Assembly (NCBI GenBank): GCA_964016885.1
Contig: OZ024762.1
Span: 26,040,001-26,104,000, forward strand
DNA: 64,000 nt
Source of the DNA: Eledone cirrhosa
Taxonomy: Eukaryota
Reading direction: 5' to 3'
Below are positions 8,226-8,297 of this stretch, piece after piece. The first letter of the stretch is position 1; every line of letters starts with the position of its first letter. The translations under genes were made by a program, and so were the position numbers. The notes below the pieces were generated by a model. It did not search any database, was not told the DNA's origin, and saw only the letters and a list, made by a program, of their open reading frames with translations.

Positions 8226-8297
8226 CTTCATCAGTTGTCTCCTGGGGATCATGCATATTTCTACGCATGAAAGACAAGATATCTAACCCCAGGGCGT
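8226..8297 (-). ncRNA. Non-circularly permuted hammerhead-like motif, variant C
   Basis: Reverse complement: acgc cctgggg ttag atat C | ttgtct ttcat gcgt a GAA atat gcatgat ccccagg agacaa CTGATGA. Confidence 0.65.

Follow-up and report, generated by a model that had tools for sequence, protein, structure and literature searches.

Type SGC is a non-circular permutation of the hammerhead ribozyme which cleaves in vitro and, according to the accessible part of Eckert et al. (2023, PMC10085705), comprises 583 sequences, nearly all exclusive to metatranscriptomes, with none from the genome of a known organism. The same text assumes that the blocks of the ribozyme cannot be interrupted, counts six hammerhead permutations, and gives type CSG as formerly known from a few soil-metagenome sequences (PMC10085705). 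Naiads are Penelope-like elements that target (TA)n, for which no canonical hammerhead is reported in the available portion of Craig et al. (2021, PMC8557442), where 18 Naiads are flagged (10 as 'HHR_core' and 8 as 'HHR_half_core'). Hammerheads in the pseudo-LTRs of Penelope-like elements were proposed to process tandem precursors and to form circles (accessible parts of PMC4209133 and PMC7229834), and non-LTR retrozymes were proposed to be non-autonomous partners of these elements (accessible parts of PMC7229834 and 10.64898/2026.07.22.740005). In its available text, the 2026 retrozyme preprint of Li et al. (10.64898/2026.07.22.740005) uses type I descriptors only, and the available text of PMC13725137 mentions such permutations only by citing earlier work. 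A literature search that covered few subscription journals retrieved no paper in which non-circular hammerheads are described from Naiads or from an animal genome.

The window (the whole stretch of 64,000 nucleotides of Eledone cirrhosa DNA analysed here) carries a related motif on its minus strand at about 8 kb. An earlier note had placed a permuted hammerhead at 8226-8297, and all the helices and core elements that it listed are found at their places: helix P (8293-8287 with 8247-8241), stem I (8277-8272 with 8240-8235), stem III (8282-8279 with 8258-8255), a stem II corresponding to our IIb (8297-8294 with 8266-8263), AUC with its C at 8278, GAAA at 8261-8258, and CUGAUGA at 8234-8228. The segment order that it described, with cleavage site, GAAA, and CUGAUGA following one another, is also that of the minus strand, which reads 5' to 3' as the stem III strand with AUC, the stem I strand, a 4-nt linker, a strand up to A8262, GAAA, the partner strands of III, P, and I, CUGAUGA, A8227, and GGAAAA. 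A8262 and A8227 occupy positions 11.1 and 10.1 of this copy. Two helices (IIa and H) had been missed, the true motif spanning 8221-8328, and the element, placed by the note at 8145-8460, measures 8136-8459. The features are as follows, with the predicted cut lying between 8278 and 8277 (minus strand).

8136..8459, minus strand: copy of repeat subfamily B, 5'-truncated, ending in (TA)n (BLAST, 80-92% identity to family copies)
8323..8328, minus strand: upstream strand of helix IIa, pairing with the bases after CUGAUGA (MFE and covariation)
8298..8319, minus strand: hairpin H, 8 bp with a 6-nt loop (4 of 7 pairs compensatory, 94.9% paired)
8294..8297, minus strand: upstream strand of helix IIb (88% paired, two compensatory pairs)
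8287..8293, minus strand: 5' strand of helix P, equal to the stem I/stem II interaction helix (5 of 6 pairs compensatory)
8272..8284, minus strand: block S, with the 3' strand of III, U16.1 (8279), C17 (8278), and the 5' strand of I (8277-8272)
8253..8267, minus strand: block G, with the 3' strand of IIb (8267-8263), A11.1 (8262), GAAA, and the 5' strand of III
8249..8270, minus strand: competing 9-bp hairpin with GAAA trapped in its loop (folding and family comparison)
8241..8247, minus strand: 3' strand of helix P (covariation and folding)
8227..8240, minus strand: shortened block C, with the 3' strand of I (8240-8235), CUGAUGA, and A10.1 (8227)
8221..8226, minus strand: downstream strand of helix IIa (covariation and folding)
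21499..21613, minus strand: ribozyme copy of subfamily A1, G-C at 10.1/11.1
22022..22136, plus strand: copy of subfamily A1, inverted relative to the 21.5 kb copy
26310..26424, minus strand: copy of subfamily A2, A-U at 10.1/11.1, in tandem with the 27.0 kb copy
26998..27112, minus strand: copy of subfamily A2
27479..27593, plus strand: copy of subfamily A2, inverted

The hammerhead core (CUGANGA, GAAA, and NUH) is complete, and it is adjoined by stem I (96.7% paired) and stem III (98.4% paired). Judged from its sequence, the hammerhead-core motif at 8 kb is real. There is no stem II closed by 10.1-11.1 between blocks C and G; a standard stem II, in which the stretch following CUGAUGA would pair with the one preceding GAAA, was considered and rejected, with no pairing beyond one position. 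The bases after CUGANGA pair upstream of H (helix IIa), and the strand before GAAA pairs 5' of block S (helix IIb). The blocks stand in the order S, G, C, and helix P links stems I and II at their distal sides, both as in type SGC; the uninterrupted block C of that type (I strand, CUGANGA, II strand) is absent. The layout, from 5' to 3', is IIa-H-IIb-P-III-cut-I-linker-IIb-GAAA-III-P-I-CUGAUGA-IIa, with six helices. The topology can thus be described as type SGC in which block C is opened after A9/10.1, with the stem II partner and the I/II strand now lying 5' of block S. A pistol-like reading of the TAA-GCG stretch was dropped, since the full hammerhead core accounts for that stretch.

A descriptor with S-G-C order and minimum lengths of 5 for stem I, 4 for stem III, 4 for the upstream strand of stem II, and 5 for helix P matched six times in the window (the 8-kb copy and the five copies at 21-27 kb), and once in total in 300 shuffled windows. 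Rfam, its hammerhead models included, gave no match at E ≤ 10 within 8150-8450; over the whole window, the 150 listed out of 377 Rfam matches were all to miRNAs and driven by microsatellites.

The earlier note regarded the 8-kb motif as sitting in a repeat otherwise unrelated to that at 21-27 kb, a view that does not hold, as the two are homologous subfamilies. Over the 115-nt motif, the 8-kb copy is 50-54% identical to the copies at 21.5 and 27.5 kb, bridging subfamilies are 53-78% identical to it, and another B copy reaches 93%. The global alignment score exceeds all of 2000 shuffles, and 25 real copies, hand-picked to span the subfamilies encountered, align with a mean column identity of 74%. 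The upstream 46 nt alone align no better than shuffles (313 of 2000 equal their score), and the outer flanks are dissimilar, as had been noted, with no BLAST match between the A and B flanks. The contrast drawn in the note thus lies between distant subfamilies within one clade.

Selection on the fold, which the note had argued from structure shared by unrelated sequences, is backed by compensatory changes among related subfamilies, not by convergence of unrelated repeats. Across 36 modelled pairs in the 25 copies, 91.8% of 900 cells are paired, a figure counting related sequences rather than independent events. Compensatory change occurs in 21 of the 36 pairs and in each of the six helices; none of 500 shuffles matches it, although kinship inflates such tests. 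When the partner strands were slid by 1-3 columns, at most 45.7% were paired. One pair of helix IIa is seen as G-C, A-U, and U-A, and a C-run of this helix is expanded in the 8-kb copy; the IIa score is lowered by four alignment rows in which the base following CUGANGA is missing and the strands of IIa are misaligned. A measure of further pair types did not exceed the shuffled background (236 of 500). All six helices can coexist without sharing bases. Nested folding gave weak z-scores for three family copies (-0.8 to -1.7); the fold model rests on covariation. Copies inside one subfamily decay freely, and 74 of 108 full copies pass the descriptor.

In the genome of E. cirrhosa (3.0 Gb searched), a tight pattern running from GAAA to CUGANGA gave 16,569 matches (8331+8238), a lower bound on the copy number, and its reversed control gave none; a looser pattern gave 22,980 (11,446+11,534) against 1,789 (936+853) in the reversed control. 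A 131-nt query gave 1673 first-look candidates, 40 of which were scored. In 30 copies examined, the repeat has a sharp 3' end about 85 nt past CUGAUGA, at (TA)n, and variable 5' truncation, with inverted and partial tandem copies. Neighbouring copies on the same strand mostly lie 451-706 nt apart, the tandem units being about 450-710 nt long. The pseudo-LTR tandems, inverted 5'-truncated copies, and (TA)n target are those of Naiad insertions, and the non-coding tandem units with one hammerhead apiece are those of non-LTR retrozymes. The type I hammerhead of such retrozymes is absent, the order here being S-G-C, and no ORF belongs to the repeat units examined, so that the repeat itself lacks a Naiad ORF. 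Subfamily B is a non-coding Penelope-like pseudo-LTR or retrozyme-like unit. The NUH triplet is AUA in 71 of 108 full copies, AUC in 34, and another in 3, and each core base of block C is kept in 28 or 29 of the 29 other copies of the B family. Some loci (L107 at 352 and 1135, plus strand; L109 at 439, minus strand; L108) belong to a distant subfamily with a different hairpin H, outside the covariation alignment, in which C11.1 can pair with an upstream G as at published Naiad ends.

The earlier note had seen an A.A at 10.1-11.1 and proposed checking whether the family consensus restores the pair. The A.A is present and family-wide, and the family does not restore it: A8262 and A8227 are each found in 27 of 29 other copies. 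Pairing between the NUH and GAAA segments is kept (U16.1 in 29 of 29), and stem III has 5 bp in the B family against 4 bp in the 8-kb copy. Positions 10.1 and 11.1 are paired in 60% of the copies of the 25-row alignment and in 128 of 185 copies in a sample (the first matches listed on contig C1, plus the window) that is enriched for families with a purine at 11.1. According to the base at 11.1, the pair forms in 80 of 80 copies with U, 13 of 13 with C, 35 of 89 with A, and none of 3 with G; the unpaired combinations, in many copies, include A.A, G.A, G.G, and C.A, and some U-A cases may represent CpG decay of C.A. In coral-type copies, described below, the partner of C11.1 is an upstream G. 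A missing 10.1/11.1 pair is frequent among retroelement hammerheads, examples being U.U and C.A in Naiad ends (available portion of PMC8557442) and an axolotl hammerhead family (accessible text of PMC7229834). Hammerheads with a 1-bp helix II, or with none, still cleave, slowly, according to the accessible part of PMC13725137.

The competing hairpin pointed out in the note (catgc/gcatg, 8269-8265 with 8254-8250) is real in the 8-kb copy and private to it. The hairpin around GAAA has -10.3 kcal/mol here versus -0.9 in most family copies, and its ensemble share is 0.96 versus at most 0.07 in 23 other copies, as counted in a nested folding model that leaves pseudoknots aside. The motif of this copy bears five private changes, each found in 0 of 29 other copies, and the competing hairpin is due to two of them, which perfect its 9 bp. 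Modelled in this way, the 8-kb copy is probably inactive and misfolded, and cleavage by this copy itself seems unlikely. Four of the five private changes (8293, 8269, 8254, and 8241, minus strand) make new Watson-Crick pairs in inverted repeats, with one change extending helix P and two perfecting the GAAA hairpin. In this one copy, such changes could be due to hairpin-templated mismatch correction on single-stranded DNA.

Other repeats of the window were recorded as well. At 22566 and 52715 (both plus strand) stand minimal type I hammerheads of canonical form in which CUGANGA is followed by an additional A; the second lies behind pieces of a Penelope-type ORF (50081-51223), and long ORFs elsewhere are flanked by this motif too. 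A repeated hammerhead-like motif of ordinary order, with U.U at 10.1/11.1, a long stem III, and copies often in inverted pairs, lies at 25711 (plus), 57768 (minus), and 58529 (minus). C-then-G hammerhead-like motifs with a bulged stem II lie at 20949 (minus) and 59290 (plus), and at 8301 (plus) and 4799 (minus) of locus L167, where one bulged-stem-II type flanks a Penelope-like ORF with a C-terminal nuclease. Penelope-like ORF fragments with a Cys-rich linker and a GIY-YIG-like end, which we take to be Neptune-like, occur at 43311-43886 (plus) and 55644-56378 (minus); Pfam gave no match on either, and ORF fragments were in general mostly blank. A SINE-like repeat, presumably akin to the cephalopod OK SINE, has many copies, some tandem or inverted (5757-6119, 8500-8790, 33365-34423, 36116-36700, and 40341-40548), one of which abuts the 5' end of the 8-kb element. 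An 81-bp tandem array of 21 copies (94% matches) fills 11486-13167.

The same motif was recognized outside E. cirrhosa. By eye, among the sequences in the available part of PMC8557442, the published 3' ends of Naiad_Obim and Naiad_Ovul show the same six-helix layout, and their hairpin loop is that of several E. cirrhosa subfamilies. The layout was also seen by eye in three Acropora Naiads, in Naiad_EuTe of a clam shrimp, and in one entry that is a Morbakka Naiad by file order, with a looser likeness in Naiad_Bfor and in an entry that is Naiad_Esco by file order. A clean C-S-G order was read by eye in Naiad-2_Nbra, Naiad-3_Nbra, and three further entries of the file, and a plain S-G-C order in one published Naiad consensus. 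In all, non-circular forms were seen by eye in about 15 of 54 Naiad consensus sequences, among the matches listed from the accessible file. The nematode Naiad ends (File S5 of PMC8557442, as available) look by eye like textbook C-S-G hammerheads with G10.1-C11.1.

A relative with wholly different letters and the same six helices is the coral-type repeat, which makes up 59 of 131 loci among the matches listed. The pattern of its motif was matched in at least 119 metagenome stretches and 12 times in viral sequences. None of these 12 viral matches passes the descriptor; a match of another pattern on a viral contig was set aside as chance, lying inside a phage coding region. Among the matches listed, the descriptor was passed by 12 coral-type loci and by none of 72 other loci. 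The best coral-type copies have 6 bp in stem I, 5-14 in III, 7 in IIb, 7-10 in IIa, 7 in H, and 10 in P, and IIa, H, and IIb abut without spare bases. In one copy (L223), the motif lies 347 nt past the end of an ORF; this ORF end is 65-68% identical to longer homologues (P0007/P0008), which have an N-terminal GIY-YIG, CxC, DKA, and a C-terminal RT, the domain order of Naiads. A Naiad ORF is thus associated with the coral-type relative only (L223 with P0007/P0008).

In E. cirrhosa, no intact Naiad ORF was found in the genome, the matches being stop-ridden old relics. The RT motif pattern gave no match there, and the DKA motif was found in two relics. Out of 150 relic matches, 30 loci were read, none of which has an intact ribozyme within 1.5 kb downstream; one degenerate look-alike stands behind a relic (L137), and the genome contains two degenerate ribozymes of the published Octopus Naiad type. 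The repeat subfamilies are non-coding and partly young, unlike these old relics. At 17 loci where a long ORF belongs to another Penelope-like clade, there is either an ordinary C-then-G hammerhead or none at all, and 18 further stretches have no S-G-C motif behind any ORF. Two ORFs beside ribozyme copies (L166, L167) were rejected as partners, with no motif at their own 3' ends, as was a young Penelope-like family with a C-terminal nuclease (1,789 matches), the 3' UTR of which is unrelated. This young family (L169-L193; 1,789 motif matches; C-terminal GIY-YIG) has no exact CUGANGA in its microsatellite-rich 3' UTR of about 1.2 kb at 24 of 25 loci. The E. cirrhosa repeats are likely derived from Naiad elements, and the split hammerhead is likely an overlooked self-cutting RNA of Naiads that were thought to be without a normal ribozyme.

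Indirect signs of cleavage were sought in the 5' ends of truncated copies. Among 47 coral-type copies not ended by a contig edge, and allowing a few bases of microhomology, 28 start between -9 and -20 from G12 (the cut being at -17) and none between -21 and -65; the binomial value of about 1e-19 is overstated because the bins were defined post hoc and two copy pairs share flanks. In E. cirrhosa, with bins also set post hoc, 16 of 185 copies start at -14 to -23 versus 27 in -24 to -83 (p=1.7e-4), and after removal by hand of internal deletions and a shared junction 11 of 35 remain (p=0.008). Copies of subfamily B that start at the cut include L393, L068, and second copies in L009 and L010. These preferred starts may be taken as an indirect sign of cleavage in vivo.

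Taken together, the motif is probably a non-circularly permuted hammerhead with a split stem II which stands near the 3' end of Naiad-derived repeats and would cut their transcript after NUH. That the split form cleaves is very likely for the clade as a whole and moderately likely for subfamily B. The core would fold like type SGC, stems I and II being linked through P; IIa and H would form a junction between A9 and stem II where the free ends of the RNA are located. In the 8-kb copy, the cut would fall after C8278. Cutting a tandem transcript would free unit-length RNA and leave a 5'-OH end, at which reverse transcription would run off, so that new copies would begin at the cut. As IIa, IIb, P, and III span the cut, the products would remain paired with each other and could re-ligate into circles, and a Penelope-like RT with a GIY-YIG nuclease would mobilise the repeats in trans. 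A broader reading is held to be reasonably probable. In it, many Naiads across animal phyla would carry non-circular hammerheads as their usual 3' ribozyme, missed because descriptors assume circular order, and the new opened-block architecture would cleave in vivo and determine where inserted copies begin; the two-helix junction bearing the RNA ends would then sit inside the core, in a block deemed indivisible. Under the assumptions of Eckert et al., no helix could be inserted between A9 and stem II, so that the activity of type SGC cannot be carried over to this motif.

It is improbable that the octopus-type subfamilies, B above all, keep the fold and yet cut poorly or never, the structure serving mainly as a signal for RT binding or priming and the pile-up of 5' ends arising from stalling or template switching at the structure. 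Such poor cutting would suit the A.A, G.A, G.G, and C.A combinations at 10.1/11.1 in many copies and the moderate 5'-end enrichment in E. cirrhosa; moreover, Penelope hammerheads are often weak in vitro (accessible part of PMC4209133), and one of nine retrozyme dimers cut (accessible part of 10.64898/2026.07.22.740005). However, the core bases are near invariant, and the coral-type 5' ends stop sharply 3 nt beyond the cut with none in the next 45 nt. As for stalling, little structure would be left to hold up an RT at the cut, which by then would have read through the downstream strands of I, III, P, and IIa.

A further, still less probable reading takes IIa and H as a switch or dimer interface, the ribozyme being active only in tandem transcripts or after refolding. 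Tandems are frequent, dimer activity is established for Penelope hammerheads (accessible parts of PMC7229834 and PMC4209133), and subfamily B has a weak latent GAAA hairpin (-0.9 kcal/mol); against this, the six helices form together with no shared bases, stem III is stable (5-14 bp), unlike in dimer-dependent forms, and the coral-type IIa, H, and IIb leave no spare bases between them. That the arrangement is due to chance or neutral inheritance, with no selection on RNA structure, is scarcely credible and already largely refuted by the covariation and coral-type data. The free decay inside subfamilies, the failure of about a third of the full copies to pass the descriptor, and the inflation of the shuffle tests by relatedness would agree with it, but the single match in the shuffled windows, the compensatory change in all six helices with failing slid controls, and the same layout in distant animals speak for the structure being selected.

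If the split hammerhead of these repeats is read in this way, non-circular permutations, so far represented by a few hundred sequences of metatranscriptomes, would be present in tens of thousands of copies in animal genomes and thereby gain a host element. It would also offer a direct answer to the puzzle, stated in the available part of PMC8557442, that Naiads proliferate without canonical hammerheads, and would break the block assumption behind the six-permutation count (PMC10085705, as accessible). The pile-up of 5' ends would tie ribozyme cleavage to the 5' truncation of Penelope-like elements, which bears on the role of these ribozymes.

Compared with known systems, the repeats resemble Naiads in that they target (TA)n and occur as 5'-truncated, inverted, and partly tandem copies, and, by eye, in the six-helix motif at several of the 3' ends in the accessible published file, both Octopus ones included; they differ in being non-coding and partly young, whereas the Naiad ORFs of this genome are old relics. 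With animal non-LTR retrozymes, as described in the available parts of PMC7229834 and 10.64898/2026.07.22.740005, they share non-coding tandem units, each a few hundred bases long and bearing a single hammerhead, but those hammerheads are of type I and were found with type I descriptors, and circular RNA has been shown for the retrozymes, while circles of the E. cirrhosa repeats are a prediction. The minimal type I hammerheads of Penelope elements (Cervera and de la Pena 2014, PMC4209133, accessible part) likewise lie in a pseudo-LTR, and the CUGAUGA-A-GGAC spelling of subfamily A2 is that of the canonical type I motif at window position 22566; they differ by a circular C-G-S order, a short stem III, and dimer dependence. 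Type CSG (Eckert et al. 2023, as available), seen by eye in nematode Naiads, belongs to the same circular connectivity class, but is opened elsewhere and has an ordinary stem II. The closest likeness is to type SGC/HRIMA-1, with the S-G-C order, the full core, a short linker between the strands of stems I and II, and an extra helix joining the other sides of these stems. In type SGC, stem II is made from blocks C and G. In the E. cirrhosa motif, both the partner strand of stem II and the I/II interaction strand precede block S on its 5' side, and block C is interrupted after A9/10.1, the gap being spanned by IIa and H; the genome of this animal holds 16,569 copies or more.
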